A stretch of DNA of 64,000 nt, taken from NCBI GenBank assembly GCA_937903605.1, contig CALCZC010000007.1, positions 124,459-188,458 on the forward strand, written 5' to 3'. The stretch comes from an uncultured bacterium. Lineage in GTDB: Bacteria; Patescibacteriota; Patescibacteriia; Magasanikbacterales; GWA2-37-8. The translations under genes and the position numbers were made by a program. Every line of letters begins with the position of its first letter. Position 1 is the stretch's first letter. The notes beneath the pieces are model-generated. The model had not been told where the DNA came from, did no database searches, and saw only the letters and a program-made list of their open reading frames with translations. This document shows positions 3,660 through 64,000 of the stretch, one piece after another.

Positions 3660-5781
<2,122 letters not shown>

Positions 5782-8628: not shown

Positions 8629-9741
8629 TTAATATAGTAGCATTGCATCTCCAAAACTATAAAATCTATAGTCTTCTTTTACCGCTTCTTCATAACATTT
8701 GAGCATAAATTCTCGATCATCGGCAAAAGCGCAAACTAACATCAGCAAAGTGCTTTTTGGTAAATGAAAATTGGTAATCAAAGCATCAATCACTTGAAAT
8801 TTAAAACCTGGAATAATAAAAAGATTTATATCTCCTTGAAAAGATTTTATTAATCTTTTATCTTTAGAGTCTTTATTTATTTCTGCCAAACCTTCCAAAG
8901 TGCGGACTGTGGTGGTGCCCACGGCAATTATTCTCCTACCTTGTGCCTTGGCATCATTTATCAGACTGGCATTTTTATCAGTCACTTCTACCCATTCATG
9001 GTGCATTTTATGATTTTCCAATTTTTCAGTTTTAACCGGTTGAAAAGTACCTAAACCGACATGTAAAGTAACTTCAGCAAAATCTACACCCTTTTGTTTT
9101 ATTTTTTCAATCAATTCCGGTGTAAAATGAAAACCGGCTGTTGGTGCGGCTACCGAACCCTCATTTTTTGCATATACAGTTTGATATTTATCATTTAGTT
9201 CATCTTGGGTAATATTAATATTTTTGATATATGGCGGAGTTGGTACTTCACCATATTTATTGGCTTTGGCACGAACATTAAAATCACTGTCGTTAAAATC
9301 AACCAAAACAGTGCCATCCGTATCTTTGAGCAATACTTCGGCAACAAAATCCGTAGCAAAAACTATTTTCATTCCCAAACGTAGTCGCTTCCCCGGTTTA
9401 GCTAGCACTTTCCAAATACCTTCATTTTCCGAAGGTCTTAACAGAAAAACTTCTACTGGTTTCAAATTGAGAATTTTATTGGTTGACTTTCTGTCTTTGA
9501 GATTATCTGACCTCTGATCAAGCTTGATTTCTCCTTTTAACCTCGCTTTAAAAACTTTGGAATTGTTCCACACTACCAAATCTCCAGGTTGCAGGTAATC
9601 CAAAATATCAGTAAATTTTTTGTGTTCAACGGTTTTTTCTTCTTTATTAATTACCATCAAACGTGAAGAATCCCGAGGCTCTGCCGGAGCTTGAGCGATA
9701 TTTTTAACGGGCAGGTTGTAGTCGAAGTCGGAAGTATGCAT
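8629..9741 (-). CDS. queA: S-adenosylmethionine:tRNA ribosyltransferase-isomerase
   Basis: MHTSDFDYNLPVKNIAQAPAEPRDSSRLMV... and C-terminal ...TLLMLVCAFADDREFMLKCYEEAVKEDYRFYSFGDAMLL. Confidence 0.85.
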   Translation of the reverse strand: MHTSDFDYNLPVKNIAQAPAEPRDSSRLMVINKEEKTVEHKKFTDILDYLQPGDLVVWNNSKVFKARLKGEIKLDQRSDNLKDRKSTNKILNLKPVEVFLLRPSENEGIWKVLAKPGKRLRLGMKIVFATDFVAEVLLKDTDGTVLVDFNDSDFNVRAKANKYGEVPTPPYIKNINITQDELNDKYQTVYAKNEGSVAAPTAGFHFTPELIEKIKQKGVDFAEVTLHVGLGTFQPVKTEKLENHKMHHEWVEVTDKNASLINDAKAQGRRIIAVGTTTVRTLEGLAEINKDSKDKRLIKSFQGDINLFIIPGFKFQVIDALITNFHLPKSTLLMLVCAFADDREFMLKCYEEAVKEDYRFYSFGDAMLLY

Positions 9742-24887: not shown

Positions 24888-25356
24888 GTTTCGCTCAAAG
24901 CTATAAGCCGAATTTCGTCTACCCGTTTTTAAATTAAAAACGAGGAGATGGTCATTTATCTTGTCGGTCACATCACTGCGCCGATCTTTGCGAGCTAACT
25001 TTCTGAATTCCTGACTAAAAAGTCGGAAAACATTGCTCTTGCGCCAGGCAGGGTTTGGCACGTTTTGGCATTGCTGCCAATCGAGTATGATAGCCCATAT
25101 ATAAGACCTTCATACACTTTTCACCTTTGGCGAGGAAAAATCCTCGTTAGTATAGTCTCTGTGCCACTTTCCCTTTTACATTGTTACCAATGCAACGGCG
25201 GGTATTACCCGCTACCCCTTACCTTTCAGACAAACGAGACCTCTAAAAACCAAGAAATTCTTAATTTTTAGCCTGTCTATAATTGCTTGCCGATAGAGGC
25301 GTTCGGACTTTCCTCTCGGGTCGTATTCCGACCCAAGCGACCATCCGCTTTGAACC
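24888..25356 (-). ncRNA. rnpB: RNase P RNA (bacterial type A-like)
   Basis: Minus strand contains the P4 5' strand GAGGAAAGUCCGAAC, then GGUAAUACCCGCC, AAGGUGAAA, ACCCUGCCUGGCGCAAG (E. coli has ACUCCACCCGGAGCAAG), and the P4 3' strand ACGAAAUUCGGCUUAUAG. A P1 pairing guucaaagc/gcuuugagc closes the molecule. The region is about 50% GC in an AT-rich context and has no protein ORF. Confidence 0.75.
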
Positions 25357-38894: not shown

Positions 38895-39839
38895 TTAAAA
38901 GAGCGTTGGTAGTGCGTCTACGGCTGGGGTAAACCCCTTTGGCACTGACGGCACATACCGCACTTGGGTTTTCCTCTGTCGGAACCCCTCCTCCAAAGAC
39001 ACCTTGTTTTTCTTTGACAGTTTTACCGGACCATCAAAGTAGTCTTTGGCAGCCTGGACATCCTCTTCTTCAGTAGCCTTCTTCCAACTGTCATTCTCAC
39101 TTAAAAGATATGACAGATAAGAATTAAAGGTTGTTTCAGAAGTCGGGAAAAGTAGTCCCAGATAATTGACCGAACTAGATTGATCATATCTTATGACGGT
39201 ATAAATCTCTTCACTGGTCAGTCCTCTGGAGGGATTTTTCAAACCCACTTTTCCAGCCATTAGTGTGTAGTCCTTATCATCGGTTTTTATCCAAACCGCT
39301 TTTAAACCCCACACCGGCAGTCTGGAAACTTTTCCCTCTGCCACAACAACAAGGGTCATATACAGATCTTCTCCGGATGGAGATGCCCAATTCGGAATCT
39401 TTTCCGGTATGTTTTGGGTCTCGGTATATTCCCGGAGCCACATACCATGAAGCAAAGCCGTGTCTTTATATATCAAGACATCGTCTTTGTAAAACTCCGA
39501 TCTTCCTTGACCGGGGAAATTCACGAGTCGTTCACCAAAAATTTCCTTTTCGGTTACCGTCTCCGTGACTGAGCATTTTTCTTCATCAAAAGACATGGTG
39601 TGTCTCTCAAATCCGATTTTCTGCCCATCTACCCCGTTGATGATCTTCGTATAAACAGCCGATTGAGTGTCGACTTTTTTTACGAAGCCATCCTTGTCAG
39701 GAAGCTTGGTGACGATGTCACAGGTTTCCTGGACCACAACCACTTCTTCCTCAGCACCGTCGCTGAAAATGAAGTAAAGGGAAACAAGAATCAGCGCTAT
39801 CGCAACTACGATAAGCGCGCTTTTGGAATGCTTTTTCAT
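38895..39839 (-). CDS. Hypothetical N-terminally membrane-anchored protein (about 314 aa)
   Basis: The start is set at MKKHSK (ATG 39839), which is preceded by SD taggagggcaatcATG. The ORF-track start at 39884 would sit at or before the predicted transcription start. Confidence 0.55.
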   Translation of the reverse strand: MKKHSKSALIVVAIALILVSLYFIFSDGAEEEVVVVQETCDIVTKLPDKDGFVKKVDTQSAVYTKIINGVDGQKIGFERHTMSFDEEKCSVTETVTEKEIFGERLVNFPGQGRSEFYKDDVLIYKDTALLHGMWLREYTETQNIPEKIPNWASPSGEDLYMTLVVVAEGKVSRLPVWGLKAVWIKTDDKDYTLMAGKVGLKNPSRGLTSEEIYTVIRYDQSSSVNYLGLLFPTSETTFNSYLSYLLSENDSWKKATEEEDVQAAKDYFDGPVKLSKKNKVSLEEGFRQRKTQVRYVPSVPKGFTPAVDALPTLF

Positions 39840-39890
39840 GATTGCCCTCCTATAGGCAAAGTTAATAAATTTCCAAGGAACCAACGAAGC

Positions 39891-40062: not shown

Positions 40063-40425
40063 TTAGCCATGGTGTTTTTCTATTACCTCCTCCAGGGCAT
40101 AGAAATTTTTATGCTTGGAAATAAAATCTTTGACTTTTTCGTCAAATTCTTTTTCCCCGCATTTATCAACTACAACTATCTCGTTTTTTTCATATTCGGA
40201 AAGAATCTTTTCTGCCATTTCCAAGGGTATGGTCTCCCCGCTTTTTAATTTAGGAAGCCCAAGCTGGTTCACGGCAAAAACCGGTTCAAAATTTTCTTTG
40301 ACATTTGAAAGATGAAAACGACCTTCCAAAACTTCAAAGAATTTTTTTCTTCCGGCTTGAAACCTATCTTCTTTCCAAAAACATTCGGTTCCGACCTCAA
40401 AAGTGATAAAAATTACTTTTGTCAT
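40063..40425 (-). CDS. Small cytoplasmic hypothetical protein, paralog A of a three-gene array
   Basis: MTKVIFITFEVGTECFWKEDRFQAGRKKFFEVLEGRF... Own promoter (40471-40499), SD gggggtgacaaATG and a ccgcgg-type hairpin terminator. Confidence 0.55.
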   Translation of the reverse strand: MTKVIFITFEVGTECFWKEDRFQAGRKKFFEVLEGRFHLSNVKENFEPVFAVNQLGLPKLKSGETIPLEMAEKILSEYEKNEIVVVDKCGEKEFDEKVKDFISKHKNFYALEEVIEKHHG

Positions 40426-40470
40426 TTGTCACCCCCTATGAAAAAATTTTTATCAAAAGAACAGACTACT

Positions 40471-40499
40471 AATTTACTCCTTCACAATATTTTTGTCAA
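40471..40499 (-). promoter_or_regulatory. Consensus-like promoter (TTGACA-17-TAAATT) for paralog A
   Basis: Minus strand reads ttgacaaaaatattgtgaaggagtaaatt. Confidence 0.5.
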
Positions 40500-40527
40500 A
40501 AACAAAGCCCCGACAAAATCGCGGGGC

Positions 40528-40917
40528 TTACAGCTCTTCACCTTCCATTTTCCCCTTAAAAATAGATTTCAACAGAAGTGTGGTTCTATTTTCAAAGTAG
40601 AAAATTTCTATTGGGTGATCATCCTCTCTCATGATGTCCGCCATAAAAAGAATTTTCTGGTTTATTTCCAGGGATTCATGAGCTTGGACAACTACACCAA
40701 CAATTTCCGGATTCCTATCTCGGAAATAATCTCCAAGAACCTTGGAAGGCGGAATGTCTGGAGGAAGATCGATGTGTCTGATAACAATTTCAATATCCTC
40801 CTTCACTCCAAACCTGGCTTTTATCCTTTCCAAAAAATACTTGATAAACTCGCGATATCGCGAACTATACCAAGTATTTGTCGGATCGGAAAAGGTAATC
40901 AGAATTAGCCTTCTCAT
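40528..40917 (-). CDS. Small cytoplasmic hypothetical protein, paralog B
   Basis: MRRLILITFSDPTNTWYSSRYREFIKYFLERIKARF... aligns with paralog A across the first ~40 residues. Own promoter, SD aaaggaggataagATG and a hairpin terminator gccccgacaaaatcgcggggc. Confidence 0.55.
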   Translation of the reverse strand: MRRLILITFSDPTNTWYSSRYREFIKYFLERIKARFGVKEDIEIVIRHIDLPPDIPPSKVLGDYFRDRNPEIVGVVVQAHESLEINQKILFMADIMREDDHPIEIFYFENRTTLLLKSIFKGKMEGEEL

Positions 40918-43545: not shown

Positions 43546-43574
43546 TTGACAATTTTATTTTTTTATTGTATAAT
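43546..43574 (+). promoter_or_regulatory. Consensus sigma70 promoter (TTGACA-17-TATAAT) for the second zinc-ribbon gene
   Basis: ttgacaattttatttttttattgtataat. Confidence 0.6.
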
Positions 43575-43617
43575 CTTCCTGGTCCTTTTTTATAAAATAT
43601 TTTTCCGGGAGGAAAAA

Positions 43618-43857
43618 ATGCACAACAACAATGAATATCGTTATCCACCGTCTGCTTCTTATCAAAGTCTCGGGGTAATAAAAAAATTCTGCAAAGGCCG
43701 TTGCCAGATGGAAACAGATCATTTTGAAGGTGTTTCTTGGAACAAGGGTGTTAGCGAAAGAAAGATAACCTGTGTTGTCTGTCAACGCATAGAAACAGAG
43801 AATATATCTTGGGAAAAGTGCATACAGTTGGCTCCCAGAGCCGCTTTGGACACATAA
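43618..43857 (+). CDS. Small zinc-ribbon protein (79 aa), a paralog of the 43279 gene
   Basis: SD gggaggaaaaaATG. CKGRCQMETDHFEGVSWNKGVSERKITCVVCQRIE has the same C..C-x-[ME]T-x-H-x-G-[LV]-[AS]-WN...C-x2-C pattern. The ORF-track start at 43546 lies inside the promoter, so the start is reset to 43618. Confidence 0.6.
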   Translation: MHNNNEYRYPPSASYQSLGVIKKFCKGRCQMETDHFEGVSWNKGVSERKITCVVCQRIETENISWEKCIQLAPRAALDT

Positions 43858-46319: not shown

Positions 46320-46695
46320 ATGTGAATATTATTTAATTTATACTAATATACGAATTGTACTAATTATACGAATGGAATACGAATATATTCGTATTGAGTA
46401 TTAGTATAGCATTAGTATCATTCGTACCATTAGTATATTGGTATGTTTTAAAATAAAAAACCGATACCTCAAAAACAAAGATATCGGGGTCCTTAAAAAT
46501 TTAGGACGGTTCCACCCGTATTTTTCACTTTTTATAAATTGTCATTTCTCCAAAGAGTGGTACCATAACGTCAATGCGTCTGGGCTGGTTCTTTTGACTA
46601 GCAATCAAAATTATAACAATTCCCCAAAAAAAGTCAACCACAAAACAAAAAGTAATAAAAAAACCGCCTTGTTTAAGGGCGGCTATAAAAACATT

Positions 46696-47324
46696 TCAGA
46701 GAAGCTCTTCTTCGACAAATCCCCGAAGAACAGCGGCGGCGTTGTAGTGATGGTGTTTTTCGTAATCGGTCACAAAAGATTCAAAACAGCCTTTGAACCC
46801 CTTGAGATCCACACCGAACTTTTCCGCCAGCATTTTGAAATTACACAAAGTTCTCTTGGTGCTTTCGGAAGATCTGGTAACTTCTTCACGAAAACGTTCT
46901 GTATATTTGACCATCAATTCAAAAGCTTCCGGAGAACCCGGCTTGATTTCCAAGTTGCGTAAAAGACCAAGCAAGTCCTCAAGAGCAATCTCATCGCAGA
47001 AATTCTGTTGAACCAGGGCGTTTAAAACCGCCTTGTTGACCGAGAAATCGTCAAACTCTTTTTTGAAAAAAGCCGGAGAAGTTCATTGGCCTTGGACAGA
47101 TCGTTTTCCGGTTCCAGTAAAATAATACATTCCAGGGACCAGGAAAGAAACTCTTTTTCTTCTGCCGGAGTAAACCGGTAATGCTTGTCCAGATAAGCCT
47201 TTATGTTTTCTCTTTTAAAAAAAGGAAAGACATTGAGGCTCGGAAGAGAGTTCGGATCATGCTTTTCAAACAGTTGCCGCGCGCCAAAATAAAGCGCGAT
47301 TTGGGAAGTCATTCTTTGTTCCAT
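46696..47324 (-). pseudogene. Hypothetical gene split by a +1/-2 frameshift in the homopolymer cttttttcaaaaaag (about 47058-47070). The two track ORFs (47022-47324 and 46696-46974) are one reading frame if a single base is added or removed.
   Basis: The upstream ORF ends ...KANELLRLFSKKSLTISRSTRRF*. In the shifted frame it continues ...LFFKKEFDDFSVNKAVLNALVQQNFCDEIALEDLLGLLRNLEIKPG..., which is the downstream ORF. The plus-strand ORF 46438-46962 across it is spurious. Confidence 0.6.
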
Positions 47325-56369: not shown

Positions 56370-57353
56370 TGTACAGTACACCTTCAAGGGTTACACTTGT
56401 GGATAATTGCTAAGCTAAGATATTTCTCGTAAGGAGTAAGCCCATTCATGCCTTTACCTTCATGTGGTCTTTGATGGTTGTACCAATAAGTATAAGCTTG
56501 TAGTTTGTTCCAAGGACGATTTTCATTTAAATAATATTCATCATCAATACTTCTGTTAGCTCTTTCTACTTTACCATTCCAAGGAGCAGATCTTTTAGGA
56601 ATATATCTATGAATTATGTTTTTGTTGTTTAAATATTTGTGGAACACCCCTCTAAATTCCGAACCATTATCTGTTTGAATACCTACAATTAGAAAAGGAA
56701 AATATCTTTTAGCTTGTTGGTATGCCCAGATAGTGGAAAAAGCATCTTTGCTTTTTGTTTCTATGGCAAATTGTAGATTGGTAACTGTGTCTAAAAATCT
56801 ATATTGATAACTCCAAGTTAAATCTTCTCCTGGTACGTATTTTACGTCTAATTGCACGTTTTCTCCGGGTATTAGGGCTATATATGGTTTTTTCAAAGGA
56901 GCATACCAAGACTGCTTCTTCTGTGGTTTTCTAATTAAATGTCTTTTTTTATAGTATTTATATATTGTATTGGCAGATATTTTTAATTTGTAATTTTTTT
57001 CTAAAAACAGTTTCATTTTATTAGGTCCAAAATTATATTTAATTTTGTTTTCATAAATAATAACCTTGAACTTCGTTGTTAATTTTGTTTGAGGATGAAT
57101 CTCTCTTCTTTTGGAGTTTCTAAATACTAAATGATGGTCCAAATTATACCATTTGTAATATGTCTTTCGACTAATACCAAAGACATTACAAATCTCTTTA
57201 ACTGTCTTTCCATATTTATCAACTTGTAGATACCAACGAGCTCTCATTTCAGAAGGAGCGCTTAAAGGTGTACCTGCCATATTTTTATTTACTAAGGATT
57301 AAAAGTGTTACCCTTAGTTTAGCAGAGTGTTACCTTTTATGGTGTACTATACA
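56370..57353. mobile_element. Complete insertion sequence (~984 bp) with imperfect terminal inverted repeats and a 5-6 bp target-site duplication (a)GAGTT
   Basis: Left end TGTACAGTACACC-6-GGTTACACT. The reverse complement of the right end is TGTATAGTACACC-6-GGTAACACT, with a second GGTAACACT copy. Flanks are ...caagagtt|IS|gagttgg. It carries a single DDE transposase ORF. Confidence 0.8.
56384..57280 (-). CDS. IS transposase (N-terminal HTH plus rve/DDE integrase core; IS481/IS3-like)
   Basis: ...IQTDNGSEFRGVFHKYLNNKNIIHRYIPKRSAPWNGKVERANRSIDDEYY...YNHQRPHEG... is typical of a DDE integrase catalytic domain. Confidence 0.8.
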   Translation of the reverse strand: MAGTPLSAPSEMRARWYLQVDKYGKTVKEICNVFGISRKTYYKWYNLDHHLVFRNSKRREIHPQTKLTTKFKVIIYENKIKYNFGPNKMKLFLEKNYKLKISANTIYKYYKKRHLIRKPQKKQSWYAPLKKPYIALIPGENVQLDVKYVPGEDLTWSYQYRFLDTVTNLQFAIETKSKDAFSTIWAYQQAKRYFPFLIVGIQTDNGSEFRGVFHKYLNNKNIIHRYIPKRSAPWNGKVERANRSIDDEYYLNENRPWNKLQAYTYWYNHQRPHEGKGMNGLTPYEKYLSLAIIHKCNP

Positions 57354-61627: not shown

Positions 61628-62389
61628 ATGCATGAAGATTTGCTTTTATCTTTAGGTTTAAATAAAAATGAGGCTGAAATTTATGAAATTTTACTTACTA
61701 GTGGAAAATCTATGGTTAAGGACGTTCTTAAAAAAACCAAGATTCAAAGAAGTAATGTGTATAACATTTTAAATACACTAAAGGATAAAGGGCTGATTCA
61801 AGAAACACAAAACCGACGCGGTTTATCGATGTATTTCTGTGAAAATCCGGAAAAACTAGAAATGCTAGTTTTAAAAGAACAAGAACGACTAGAAGAGACG
61901 GCGGAAAAATTAAAAAAACATTTGCGTGAATTAAAAAAAATATACATTGAAAAACAAGAAAGACCTGTGGTAAGCTATGTTCAGGGCTTTGAAGATTATA
62001 AAAAAATATATGAATTAGTCTTTGATTCTCCCGAAAAAGAATCTTTGGTTTTTAGTTCAACTTTTGGCAATACGATATTGGATAATTATCTTACTGAATA
62101 CGGAAAAAGAAAATCAGAGGCTGGAATTACAACAAAAATATTTTCTTCTAAAAAACCAATCCCCTCTCTTCTCAAAAGTGATGCTGAATTTAAAAGAATA
62201 CGCCGTTACATGGGAGAAGATCTCCCAGCTGAAATTTTAATTTACGGAAAAAATACCATGGCTTTTCTCTGTTATCAAAAAGAACCTTTTGGGGTGGTAA
62301 TTGAAAACGAAGAAATAGTTCAAACATTAACTAAACTATTTAATTTTGTCTGGAAAGCAACTCCTTCCCCCTATCAAGATAATAAGTAA
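61628..62389 (+). CDS. TrmB-family-like winged-HTH transcriptional regulator
   Basis: N-terminal LGLNKNEAEIYEILLTSGKSMVKDVLKKTKIQRSNVYNILNTLKDKGLI, with a coiled segment and a C-terminal domain. Confidence 0.55.
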   Translation: MHEDLLLSLGLNKNEAEIYEILLTSGKSMVKDVLKKTKIQRSNVYNILNTLKDKGLIQETQNRRGLSMYFCENPEKLEMLVLKEQERLEETAEKLKKHLRELKKIYIEKQERPVVSYVQGFEDYKKIYELVFDSPEKESLVFSSTFGNTILDNYLTEYGKRKSEAGITTKIFSSKKPIPSLLKSDAEFKRIRRYMGEDLPAEILIYGKNTMAFLCYQKEPFGVVIENEEIVQTLTKLFNFVWKATPSPYQDNK

Positions 62390-62403: not shown

Positions 62404-63057
62404 ATGCGTGAAAATTCTTCTACTCACTCTGAAATAAATATTAATAATCCGGATATCGCAAAAAATAAAGAGTCTATAAAACCGTTTTATTTTGATAAAA
62501 ATAAAAACAAAGTTTTTATTTCTGAAAAAACACGGGAACATTTATTAGCTCACCCCGATGTAATCCAATATCTCCAAGAAGCTATAGGAAAAGCTGATTT
62601 ATCTGAAATTGAAAAAATTTTTAAAATAGAAATAAATTTAGAAAAAAATATTGGGAAATCATATTGTATTCCCGCTGAACCTTTGAGGGGAAAGACCAAA
62701 GCTCTGTTTGCTAAAAGAAAAAATAGATTGGGGCCATCGCGAGTAGTTTATGGTCAAGGAGTAGATTGTAATAGCATAACCTTGTTAGGGGCCAGAAGTA
62801 TTTATGAACCTGATAATTTTGTTCTTTTTACCGCTTATATTGGCCATTTAGCGGACATGGAACCATGGGATATCAACATCAAAGATGGCGAAACGATGAA
62901 AAAAGCTTACGATTTTTGGCGTACTCATGCTCTAGTTTATGATTCAGATGACACAAGCACTTCTTTTATAGAAGAACCCCAAGAAAAAACTTGGGAACAG
63001 GTAATGCAAGAAATGCAACCGATTTATAAAAAACTTGATGAAGAAAGAAATAAATAA
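62404..63057 (+). CDS. Hypothetical protein (217 aa)
   Basis: An intact ORF with a terminator hairpin at 63064-63091. No recognisable motifs. Confidence 0.5.
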   Translation: MRENSSTHSEININNPDIAKNKESIKPFYFDKNKNKVFISEKTREHLLAHPDVIQYLQEAIGKADLSEIEKIFKIEINLEKNIGKSYCIPAEPLRGKTKALFAKRKNRLGPSRVVYGQGVDCNSITLLGARSIYEPDNFVLFTAYIGHLADMEPWDINIKDGETMKKAYDFWRTHALVYDSDDTSTSFIEEPQEKTWEQVMQEMQPIYKKLDEERNK

Positions 63058-63133
63058 AATAAAACACCTCGGAAAAACCGTGGTGTTTTTTAAAAAAACA
63101 AAAGGGGTCTTCGCAAAGAACCCCTAGGAACGG

Positions 63134-63196
63134 CTATGTAATCCGGACAGGCCTGCCGTTGAGATTGCCTGTCCGGTTTTTCATCACCTTTTTCAT
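63134..63196 (-). CDS. Speculative 20-aa ORF directly downstream of the GC-rich gene, with a perfect SD
   Basis: Minus strand reads aacaaggaggaaaaATGaaaaaggtgatgaaaaaccggacaggcaatctcaacggcaggcctgtccggattacatag, which gives MKKVMKNRTGNLNGRPVRIT. It overlaps a GC hairpin and is followed by a minus-strand terminator, ggggttctttgcgaagacccc then T-run. Confidence 0.25.
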   Translation of the reverse strand: MKKVMKNRTGNLNGRPVRIT

Positions 63197-63210
63197 TTTT
63201 CCTCCTTGTT

Positions 63211-63543
63211 TTATTTTTTTATCAGGTTGCCTATACTGTTCTTCAGGTGCTGCGGTTTGGGTTTAGCTACGGATTCAGATACCTTGTTCTCAATATGCAG
63301 GTTTTTGAAGAGTATGGGATAATTCGGGTTTTCATACTGCAGATTGCCCTTTTCTCCGTTTTCCTTCAGAAATGCAATCAGGAGTTCCAGGTTGTCCTCA
63401 TTCATAGTCGCCTTCCCTTCCACCTTGCGGTTGTCGGTTCTAACTTTTGCGTTCTGAGATCCCTCCAGCATCTCTGCCACCTGTCCTGCTGCCATGAAAC
63501 CCTTCATTCTCATAGAGATTCTTACTTCAAAACTCTTTGTCAT
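63211..63543 (-). CDS. Hypothetical protein (110 aa) in a GC-rich, compositionally foreign segment
   Basis: SD ataaggagcttatcATG. Codon usage (ctg, cag, aag, ggc) is unlike the rest of the window. A ~200-nt GC-rich structured leader lies upstream at 63544-63760. The plus-strand ORF 63247-63807 is antisense and spurious. Confidence 0.55.
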   Translation of the reverse strand: MTKSFEVRISMRMKGFMAAGQVAEMLEGSQNAKVRTDNRKVEGKATMNEDNLELLIAFLKENGEKGNLQYENPNYPILFKNLHIENKVSESVAKPKPQHLKNSIGNLIKK

Positions 63544-64000
63544 GATAAGCTCCTTATAAAAAATATTAATAAAACACGGAATATTTCTGATGATTTTTTA
63601 AAGAACAATTTTTTCGTTAGGGATGACCCTTTACTGGCGCTCGCTTTTGAATTGCGAACCGAGGTGTCATCCCTACCGAAGACTTGGTACGAATCCCCTT
63701 TACGGTCGCCTCAACTTCCGGTTGGGCCGAGGTGGTCTTCCCAAGTTTTTAATCGAAATTATTTTCGACATTCCTATTTCCTTGTAATCCAACTCACAAA
63801 GAAATAGAGTGTTGAAGATATTGTGAAACAAGCTTTATACGAATTACCAATTTATTTGTTTATTTTCTCTCTCCCTTGAAAACAAACTTTACTGCTGTTT
63901 TTAAGGAACAATGGAAAAGGTTGTAAAAACCATATATTATTTAATTAACTTTTTTAATTTACTTGTTTGGTCTTTTTTAACCAACAGCATAATGTAGCAT

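Follow-up and report, generated by a model that had tools for sequence, protein, structure and literature searches.

A recombining gene cassette with a tandem-module leader RNA and a new ferredoxin-fold protein family in Candidatus Magasanikbacteria, possibly under translational control

Bacteria of the Candidate Phyla Radiation (CPR) have tiny genomes with many genes of unknown function, and little is known of their gene regulation and DNA exchange. A 64,000-nucleotide (nt) stretch of a Candidatus Magasanikbacteria chromosome (contig CALCZC010000007.1, hereinafter the window) contains on its minus strand a gene for a 110-residue (110-aa) protein, preceded by a long leader rich in guanine and cytosine (GC) and followed by a 20-codon open reading frame (ORF). 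The question is what this segment is: a foreign insertion, a remnant, or a working unit with its own regulation. The explanation that we favour, tentatively and with somewhat less than even confidence, is a recombining accessory cassette that is translationally controlled by its leader and possibly autoregulated by its own protein. The elements listed in the first-pass annotation of this DNA are all present where it placed them, small corrections apart.

The substitution pattern among relatives indicates that the minus-strand ORF is a real gene under strong purifying selection, because changes at third codon positions dominate. Specifically, 43 of the 55 differences between the coding sequence (CDS) of L011 and that of the window are at third codon positions, with 40 synonymous and 10 non-synonymous codons, and the relatives' proteins are 98, 91 and 86% identical to the window protein. 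An antisense ORF of 186 aa on the plus strand (63247-63807), which covers gene and leader, was rejected as the true gene; it is broken in L011, L010 and L012, and the AT skew fits minus-strand coding. It arises as a side effect of the codon bias in the 110-aa gene.

The 110-aa gene has the most atypical codon usage in the window. Leucine is encoded by CTG in 8 of 10 cases (8% in core genes), glutamine by CAG in 4 of 4 (21%), lysine by AAG in 8 of 14 (13%) and asparagine by AAC in 9 of 12 (30%). Its GC content at third codon positions (GC3) is 0.54, compared with 0.15-0.50 for the remaining ORFs, and its codon-fit score lies under those of all 434 equal-size pieces of 49 other ORFs (z = -5.3), so that the atypical ctg, cag and aag codons of the first-pass annotation are borne out. 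Structured RNA within the CDS was rejected as a source of its GC content: the CDS folds at z = +1.45 and is not unusually structured, and its GC content is therefore a property of its codons. Raised GC3 (0.38-0.50) and poor codon fit are also found in ORFs at 38895-39884, 40312-40908, 46438-46962, 47022-47324, 408-716 and 43546-43857, all without a Pfam match; these GC-richer ORFans may form a general class of acquired genes in this genome, and some of them may be spurious ORFs.

A jump in GC content from about 30% to about 50% had also been reported. The segment is GC-rich, but it consists of three GC-rich blocks with one AT-rich spacer between them and is not uniform (mean GC of the window, 35.9%). 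The window contains housekeeping genes (gyrA, FtsW/RodA, MiaA, YceG and others), RNase P RNA and two tRNAs. In 200-nt windows gyrA reaches 44-49% GC in parts, so GC content alone does not single out the cassette, and the RNase P RNA and tRNAs are 45-58% GC. High GC in the leader and the 3' hairpins is the normal look of structured RNA in an AT-rich genome; a 'foreign' explanation is therefore needed for the CDS only.

The order of the locus is FemAB, a long intergenic region, the cassette (leader, 110-aa gene, mini-ORF and terminator), a convergent 217-aa ORFan, TrmB and gyrA, and FemAB, the ORFan, TrmB and gyrA surround the cassette in every locus examined. Independent assemblies from ENA, Logan, JGI and NCBI contribute at least 16 contigs with the 110-aa gene in identical gene order, so the segment is no assembly artefact. 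The convergent 217-aa protein is 93% identical to an NCBI protein labelled 'Candidatus Magasanikbacteria bacterium', and the TrmB-like regulator likewise matches a protein with that label, which places the chromosome in the CPR/Patescibacteria.

All relatives sampled carry at this locus one of at least two deeply diverged alleles, the window type and the L018 type, whose proteins are 45% identical. The L018 allele is 57% GC with a GC3 of 0.74, in surroundings of 30-36% GC. No sister genome without the cassette was found among the flank lineages sampled. Absence from sister genomes, which the first-pass annotation had raised as a check on foreign origin, is thus not what the relatives show: every relative found has a cassette, and the high GC persists or rises.

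Two comparisons define the exchange of these alleles. The DNA of L010 and L018, two loci whose runs have adjacent accession numbers, is 85-90% identical in the 216/221-aa gene, TrmB and a 189-aa gene; at the convergent terminators identity drops sharply to about 45-50% (unalignable) and stays there throughout the cassette. The L010 neighbour protein is 87% identical to that of L018 and 73% to that of the window, whereas the L010 cassette protein is 91% identical to the window protein and the L018-type protein 45%. L023 combines L010/L018-type flanks (TrmB 69% identical to the window's) with a cassette of the L013 type. Its identity to L013 is 94-100% within a tract of about 1.7 kb, which begins in the 3' part of FemAB and takes in the first ~230 nt of the 217-aa gene, and falls to 55-79% beyond that tract. 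Because the tracts end inside flanking genes, ordinary homologous recombination is sufficient, and site-specific machinery is not indicated. As judged from these identity profiles, the cassette has been exchanged between related lineages by recombination in flanking genes, and such exchange explains the persistence of its foreign-like codon usage. By the same comparisons the locus is long-lived, recombining and multi-allelic. Of the horizontally acquired RNA/protein module proposed earlier, the discrete module, its foreign-like composition and its movement between related lineages hold, but a recent one-off insertion does not.

One copy is disrupted: L023 has a 10-nt deletion (TCATGGCAGC) at ~3995-4000 (window ~63490-63500) in an otherwise L013-identical gene, which brings a TAG stop at codon 16, and is either a pseudogene or an assembly error. 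The locus resembles strain-variable replacement islands in its deeply diverged alleles within one syntenic slot, its sharp breakpoints and its tracts ending in flanking genes. Those islands are multi-gene surface or defence loci, whereas here one small gene comes with an RNA apparatus of its own, in a CPR host.

It is decidedly unlikely that the gene is native and not mobile, with codons that reflect selection (e.g. for expression level or speed) at a locus that simply evolves fast. In favour of this, each relative has a cassette at the corresponding syntenic position, both alleles have high GC3, and no donor lineage was found; however, the relationships of cassette and flanks are incongruent in two independent comparisons, and the other high-GC3 ORFs of the window are Pfam-less ORFans, not known housekeeping genes.

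The 110-aa protein has no matches in Pfam (E <= 1), NCBIfam, PHROG or PADLOC, no relatives in BFVD or in the GTDB genome and IMG/VR scans, and a PDB sequence search returned noise only. Protein libraries of 5.8 billion and 1.8 billion entries contain only three close clusters and one distant cluster related to it; P0004 (114 aa, E = 2e-21, 45% identity) is the sole further relative in a HMMER profile search of 1.84 billion representatives. The homology search suggested by the first-pass annotation thus returned few close relatives, P0004 and no known family, and by these searches the protein represents a new family.

These searches bear on the view of the segment as a remnant of a phage or mobile element whose gene no longer functions for the cell. 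The neighbouring 217-aa protein matches a PHROG family (phrog_23674) and has distant homologues in phage-like arrays, an rve-family integrase gene lies 6 kb away, and the codon usage is atypical. The 110-aa gene itself gives the phage origin suggested earlier no direct support, with no relatives found in PHROG, BFVD or IMG/VR; moreover, it is under strong purifying selection, the element is single-copy without terminal inverted repeats, and its chromosomal position is conserved, which makes a remnant very improbable indeed.

AlphaFold2, run on a shallow alignment, predicts a core with strand and helix order b-a-b-b-a-b-b (block-mean predicted local distance difference test score 93-94 over residues 11-70) and a tail disordered from residue 89. 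The isoelectric point (pI) of the whole protein is 9.5; the core is near neutral and the tail basic. Foldseek returned generic ferredoxin-like folds only (CutA, ACT, PII and acylphosphatase among them), with E > 0.01, and the best target-normalised template-modelling score was to Cas2 (0.60-0.63, E-values 0.075-0.089). The protein shares the ferredoxin-like b1-a1-b2-b3-a2-b4(-b5) fold expected of Cas2. Nevertheless, homology to Cas2 was rejected as fold likeness only: sequence identity to Cas2 (type I-E)/VapD nucleases is 8%, hhalign of a 5-sequence profile with E. coli Cas2 gave a probability of 0.3%, no Pfam Cas2 family (CRISPR_Cas2 / Cas_Cas2CT1978) matches, and there is no cas1 gene near the cassette loci and no CRISPR-like repeat array within the 64-kb window. 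The predicted model is that of a ferredoxin-fold protein, not Cas2.

Between the two alleles the tail is unconserved except for L-x3-I-[GA]-[NS]-L, in which L, I and L are invariant; after a disordered linker the tails end in ...LKNSIGNLIKK (window) and ...LKSPIGSLVPAKPKE (P0004). This motif resembles the GSL-type encapsulin targeting peptide, with consensus DGSLGIGSLKG (PMC7925596), as a short-motif likeness only. An encapsulin cargo was rejected, with no shell gene adjoining the cassette in any locus and no Linocin_M18/encapsulin match in the 16 other window ORFs scanned.

The RNA upstream of the gene is a conserved, structured, sense-strand 5' untranslated region (UTR) of about 295 nt, with a probable regulatory role. 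The 287 nt upstream of the gene fold at -82.3 kcal/mol (z = -4.3), in agreement with the structured leader and extended stems described before. The alignment contains six distinct, closely related leader sequences. Divergence from the window is 0.39 (L011) and 0.35 (L012) at third codon positions of the gene, 0.03-0.11 in the promoter block, 0.04 in hairpin B and 0.10 in the AT-rich spacer; module A lies at 0.07-0.10, within an overall 0.03-0.10 for module A, spacer and promoter block. Faster divergence (0.19-0.35), by compensatory substitutions, is seen in hairpin A and in module B's long stem. On the minimum-free-energy (MFE) structure of the window, paired cells make up 96.7% and double changes occur at 8 pairs, a number that 1 of 500 shuffles reaches and that is 0-2 in partner-slid controls, although the structure was derived from one of the tested, closely related sequences. 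The gggatgac/gtcatccc stem noticed at first sight is real and covaries. The inner pair cgctcgc/gcgagcg, in contrast, is one site read on both strands, and the true helix is GGUUCGC/GCGAGC with U.G pairs. L018 keeps hairpin A with a different sequence, and its counterpart of hairpin B is AUCGAUGGUAUCGAU.

Rfam (Rfam 15) gives no match in 63544-63830 on either strand at the gathering threshold, and at E <= 10 only chance-level unrelated families; ARAGORN calls no tRNA in the leader. The scan proposed in the first-pass annotation therefore identified no known RNA family and no housekeeping RNA.

The GC-rich core of the leader (63746-63613) is composed of two tandem copies of one ~67-nt module, modules A and B. 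A repeat search found two blocks that recur at 68-69-nt spacing, CCGAGGTG and CCCTTTAC.G..CGC. In the window the two modules are identical at 34 of 64 positions with equal block order (CACCUCGG ... GCGNCNGUAAAGGG), and their local score is reached in 0.6% of shuffles. When the halves from three lineages are aligned, 26 columns are invariant over six modules (CACCUCGG ... GCG.C.G.AAAGGG ... UA.C.A). The common core of the halves consists of CCU/AGG and CGG/CCG helices with a 3-nt YAA bulge between them, and the enclosing outer helix covaries between modules. Module A is nearly invariant among relatives, and five stem pairs of module B have compensatory double changes.

A covariance model of the module (R1) finds exactly two copies, both in the leader (73-75 bits), and no further copies in the window or the other loci searched; TRF reports nothing in the leader. 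Among JGI/ENA metagenome contigs, just 2 contain the module core sequence, each from this lineage; the GTDB representatives and IMG/VR contigs have none. A mobile repeat or miniature inverted-repeat transposable element (MITE) was rejected, the element being single-copy and absent from GTDB representatives and IMG/VR. Likewise rejected was an IS200/IS605-type or MITE-like element, which would have multiple copies, terminal or subterminal repeats and an HUH/Y1 transposase; no terminal inverted repeats are present.

AT-rich direct repeats (TTTTTAA...TTTTCG, 73% identical) at 63595-63616 and 63746-63767 of the plus strand flank the two-module RNA exactly; they could be a target-site-like duplication or a chance likeness in AT-rich DNA. 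The L018 allele looks like an empty site, with nothing between hairpin B and the GUUCUUU box and a different AT-rich hairpin further down. Because L018 is the only divergent comparison, insertion of the modules cannot be established.

The U.G and G.U pairs in helices 2, 3, 9, 10 and 11 are possible in minus-strand RNA only, from which we conclude that the RNA is a sense-strand 5' UTR. These pairs argue against a plus-strand small RNA antisense to the leader, running from a promoter-like site at 63537-63564 to a CCCAAG-TTTTT end at ~63751. Plus-strand RNA folds just as stably (z = -4.6), and the plus strand also contains the promoter-like hexamer pair and a T-run past the closing stem of module A, and two mismatches in L011 become G.U pairs there. 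However, that closing stem is no compact terminator hairpin, and R1 scores 14.9 bits on the plus strand compared with 73-75 bits on the minus strand, a check that is partly circular because the model was built from the minus strand. Such an antisense RNA is extremely improbable.

A putative promoter of the sense-strand leader lies in its most conserved upstream block (alignment columns 101-138), which has 0.03-0.11 divergence in L011 and L012 and is also common to the divergent L018 allele. A second candidate promoter, TTGACA-N17-TACATT, spans the window end (L001 9526-9554).

The structure predicted at the start of the gene suggests how the leader may act. In MFE folds the GUUCUUU box pairs with the Shine-Dalgarno (SD) region AAGGAGC (63555-63549), and the probability that the SD is unpaired is 0.01-0.41 across variants; the anti-SD helix has two U.G pairs possible in sense RNA only. 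The 5' box CUUCAAC-ACUCU pairs with codons 4-7, AGAGUUUUGAAG (63536-63525), in MFE folds of four of the five window-type variants, and 10 of its 11 pairs are invariant, with one unpaired in one variant. The first 20 nt of the CDS have no synonymous change in any variant, and changes start right after. L018 keeps UCUUCA, complementary to its own AUGAAGA.

With homologous structured modules in tandem followed by a possible SD-sequestering helix, the leader resembles the glycine riboswitch, in which two homologous modules also precede a single expression platform. A small-molecule riboswitch would make the modules tandem aptamers and the GUUCUUU/SD helix the platform, and the near-invariance of module A would be expected of a ligand pocket. 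Nevertheless, there is no Rfam match even at E = 10, the RNA is confined to one narrow clade, in which it precedes just one ORFan and is associated with no metabolic gene, the sister allele of the gene lacks the modules, and the gene product points to no metabolite. A riboswitch-like leader had been suggested at the outset; the evidence that would identify one is absent from this tandem duplication of one module, and we regard it as very unlikely.

The tandem modules also invite comparison with type III toxin-antitoxin (TA) systems (ToxIN, CptIN, TenpIN), which likewise have tandem RNA repeats before a small protein gene in one transcription unit and are strain-variable and exchanged. In an RNA-protein addiction or defence module of this kind, the tandem RNA would neutralise or sense a Cas2/VapD-like ferredoxin-fold effector, and diversifying selection with exchange would give the divergent alleles. 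Consistent with such a module, the protein gene directly follows tandem RNA repeats, and Cas2 nucleases are the closest structural matches of its product. The locus also comes in different alleles, is exchanged and has an unusual composition, one contig has a disrupted gene copy, and the neighbour is of a phage-associated family. However, the cassette has just two degenerate ~67-nt repeats, about 53% identical, rather than a near-identical array; no terminator is called between RNA and gene, module B being followed by an A-run and not a U-run; the protein has neither ToxN-family sequence (ToxN/CptN/TenpN) nor a ToxN/Kid-like fold, and no PADLOC or Pfam match. The low hhalign probability for E. 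coli Cas2 and the merely generic ferredoxin fold seen by Foldseek, both given above, also count against it, and the L018 allele lacks the modules. A TA-like function is therefore unlikely.

The 3' end of the cassette contains a second SD, a mini-ORF, a hairpin and a terminator. The first-pass annotation had read these as aaggagg-N5-ATG, a 20-aa ORF, a hairpin and a terminator; all are present and conserved, but the spacer is 4 nt, not 5. In L018 the arrangement is UAAGGAGGU-N4-AUG followed by MLKKISWRGNFWTATRVGST, also of 20 codons, though the cassette DNA is otherwise unalignable. Among window-type variants the mini-ORF has ~8 non-synonymous substitutions and 1 synonymous (hand count, L023 included), several of them forming both sides of a compensatory stem change, and the conserved ACGGCA falls in a different reading frame in each of the two alleles. 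Ribosome loading and RNA structure thus seem to be selected rather than the peptide, whose sequence appears unconstrained.

The L018 version of the hairpin within the mini-ORF has two sense-strand G.U pairs. Read on the plus strand, this hairpin precedes a TTTTT run and so may double as a terminator that stops read-through from the convergent gene. Its loop, ACGGC, is complementary to GCCGU just past the stop codon, and the L011 loop, GCGGC, keeps the pairing as G.U, which suggests a predicted pseudoknot.

An attenuator with a leader peptide, as the 'leader-peptide-like trailer' of the first-pass annotation implied, would need a short translated ORF that overlaps alternative hairpins before a terminator, and a regulated gene downstream. 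Both alleles keep the SD, 20-codon ORF, hairpin and terminator, and no anti-terminator pairing or regulatory codon run was identified. The gene that comes next (62404-63057) lies on the opposite strand and converges, leaving nothing downstream to attenuate. A programmed -1 frameshift that would fuse the mini-ORF to the gene at the A-run was rejected: although both frames agree in the window, relatives have SD-ATG spacers of 4, 5, 6 or 8 nt, so that the two frames do not keep their relation and fusion is excluded.

These features can be combined in the explanation that we favour, a recombining cassette with translational control. Expression would be controlled post-transcriptionally by the ~295-nt 5' UTR. 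In the default fold the GUUCUUU box would sequester the SD while the 5' end pairs with codons 4-7, so that the mRNA would be poorly translatable. The two tandem modules upstream of the anti-SD box would form the sensing or operator part, the likeliest ligand would be a dimeric protein, and the simplest candidate would be the cassette's own product. The mini-ORF is probably translated for the act of translation and not for its peptide; its translation could set the folding of the 3' hairpin and terminator, and thus read-through into the convergent operon or mRNA stability.

Known operators offer a precedent for this control. Translational operators of autoregulated genes can present two similar RNA domains to a dimeric protein: the two-domain E. 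coli thrS operator, which binds dimeric ThrRS, is one, and ribosomal-protein leaders such as the S6:S18 rpsF leader are others. The cassette shares with operators of this type a long structured 5' UTR before the SD, two homologous tandem stem-loop modules, a small basic a/b protein of a fold class that is often RNA-binding, and a leader conserved far above neutral sites. It differs from them in that its RNA and protein families are new and occur in one CPR clade, its modules mimic no known tRNA or rRNA site, its sister allele has a different leader, and its protein-RNA binding is a proposal by analogy. The two families are new; the arrangement, an accessory cassette with a cis-regulatory leader, is familiar.

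Several points weigh against this explanation. No variation occurs in the anti-SD helix, the 5'-box/CDS helix or module A, which fits the model but lends it no covariation support, and only six closely related leader sequences underlie the analysis. Two A-C mismatches in L011 would be G.U wobbles on the plus strand. The promoter was assigned by eye and is putative, and the transcription start site, expression and binding are likewise putative. Autoregulation is inferred from co-inheritance, fold class and the two-module architecture. Because the L018 allele lacks both modules, they are not essential for this protein family. Finally, exchange among AT-rich relatives does not fully account for the GC3 that persists in both alleles, and the protein libraries and the GTDB and IMG/VR scans yielded no GC-rich donor lineage.

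We give little weight to a bolder version, in which two-module RNA, ferredoxin-fold protein and basic mini-ORF form an undescribed self-contained RNA-protein-micropeptide module, for example an RNA-gated effector or addiction system swapped as an arms-race locus, with bulged-helix modules docking a protein dimer or an Arg/Lys-rich peptide.

The cassette is a clear natural case in which recombination between CPR lineages has replaced one allele by another. Its structured leader RNA, tandemly duplicated and supported by covariation, is new, and so is its family of small ferredoxin-fold proteins, which is strongly selected. Should the protein bind the leader of its own gene, the circuit would be among the first post-transcriptional autoregulatory circuits described in CPR bacteria. 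Its narrow distribution, in one clade and a handful of metagenome contigs, limits its general importance. The coordinates of its parts are collected in Table 1.

Table 1. Parts of the cassette and base composition along the segment (window coordinates).
Feature	Position	Strand	Remarks
Cassette, one transcription unit of ~750 bp		-	Candidatus Magasanikbacteria (CPR) chromosome
Candidate sigma-70-type promoter TAAACA-N17-TATAAA	63834..63862	-	Assigned by eye; in most conserved upstream block
5' box CUUCAAC-ACUCU	63806..63817	-	Predicted pairing with gene codons 4-7, closing the whole leader
Hairpin A, 12-bp stem	63776..63805	-	Two pairs with compensatory double changes; sense-only G.U pairs
Hairpin B (UCGAAA/UUUCGA)	63752..63769	-	MFE folds, pairing analysis
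Module A	63681..63746	-	Outer stem, A bulge, CCU/AGG helix, 3-nt YAA bulge, CGG/CCG helix, terminal hairpin; R1 72.9 bits
Module B (gggatgac/gtcatccc stem)	63613..63680	-	Homologous tandem copy of module A; R1 74.6 bits
Box GUUCUUU, candidate anti-SD	63600..63606	-	Invariant; 7 nt past module B
SD AAGGAG of 110-aa gene	63550..63555	-	Read from sequence
Gene, 110-aa protein	63211..63543	-	Ferredoxin-like core, residues 4-85; basic disordered tail with L-x3-I-[GA]-[NS]-L
Second SD AAGGAGG	63201..63207	-	Invariant in all variants; UAAGGAGGU in L018
Mini-ORF, 20 codons, MKKVMKNRTGNLNGRPVRIT, pI 12	63134..63196	-	Start, stop and length kept in all alleles including L018
10-bp GC hairpin within mini-ORF	63143..63176	-	Fold z = -3.2; compensatory C-G to U-A in L006, L013, L012
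Intrinsic terminator, stem-loop and U-run, GGGGUUCUUUGCGAAGACCCC plus UUUUGUUUUUUU	63092..63124	-	Fold and conservation
Block, GC 47.8%	63098-63210
Block, CDS, GC 43.5%	63211-63543
Block, GC 21.2%	63544-63609
Block, GC 49.7%	63610-63760
Block, GC 27.5%	63761-64000

Some neighbouring features were also observed. The 217-aa neighbour (62404-63057, plus strand) has no Pfam match, matches phrog_23674 with E = 2e-18, and is always paired with a TrmB-family regulator (61628-62389); its distant homologues (P0009) lie in long same-strand arrays of small uncharacterised genes that are phage-like (L021, L022). In the sister lineage, the slot taken by gyrA in the window contains a 189-aa ORFan of 53% GC without a Pfam match (L018 2469-3038, L010 2366-2935, L023 1288-1857), divergent to TrmB; it is a further gene of atypical composition, at the border of this neighbourhood. 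A 298-aa gene (56384-57280, minus strand) some 6 kb from the cassette has weak rve/rve_3 integrase matches and a faint HTH_23 match (IS-type transposase), and is kept at the same place in L001 and L002. In L001, a tRNA-like GC-rich stretch at 9236-9305 (~240-310 nt past the window end at 64000), with no ARAGORN call, directly follows FemAB and is followed by a terminator. The RNase P RNA of the window (24888-25356, minus strand) is of bacterial class A (140.7 bits); it is 469 nt long, compared with a 367-position model, and has an insertion of ~107 nt near model position 88 and smaller insertions elsewhere.

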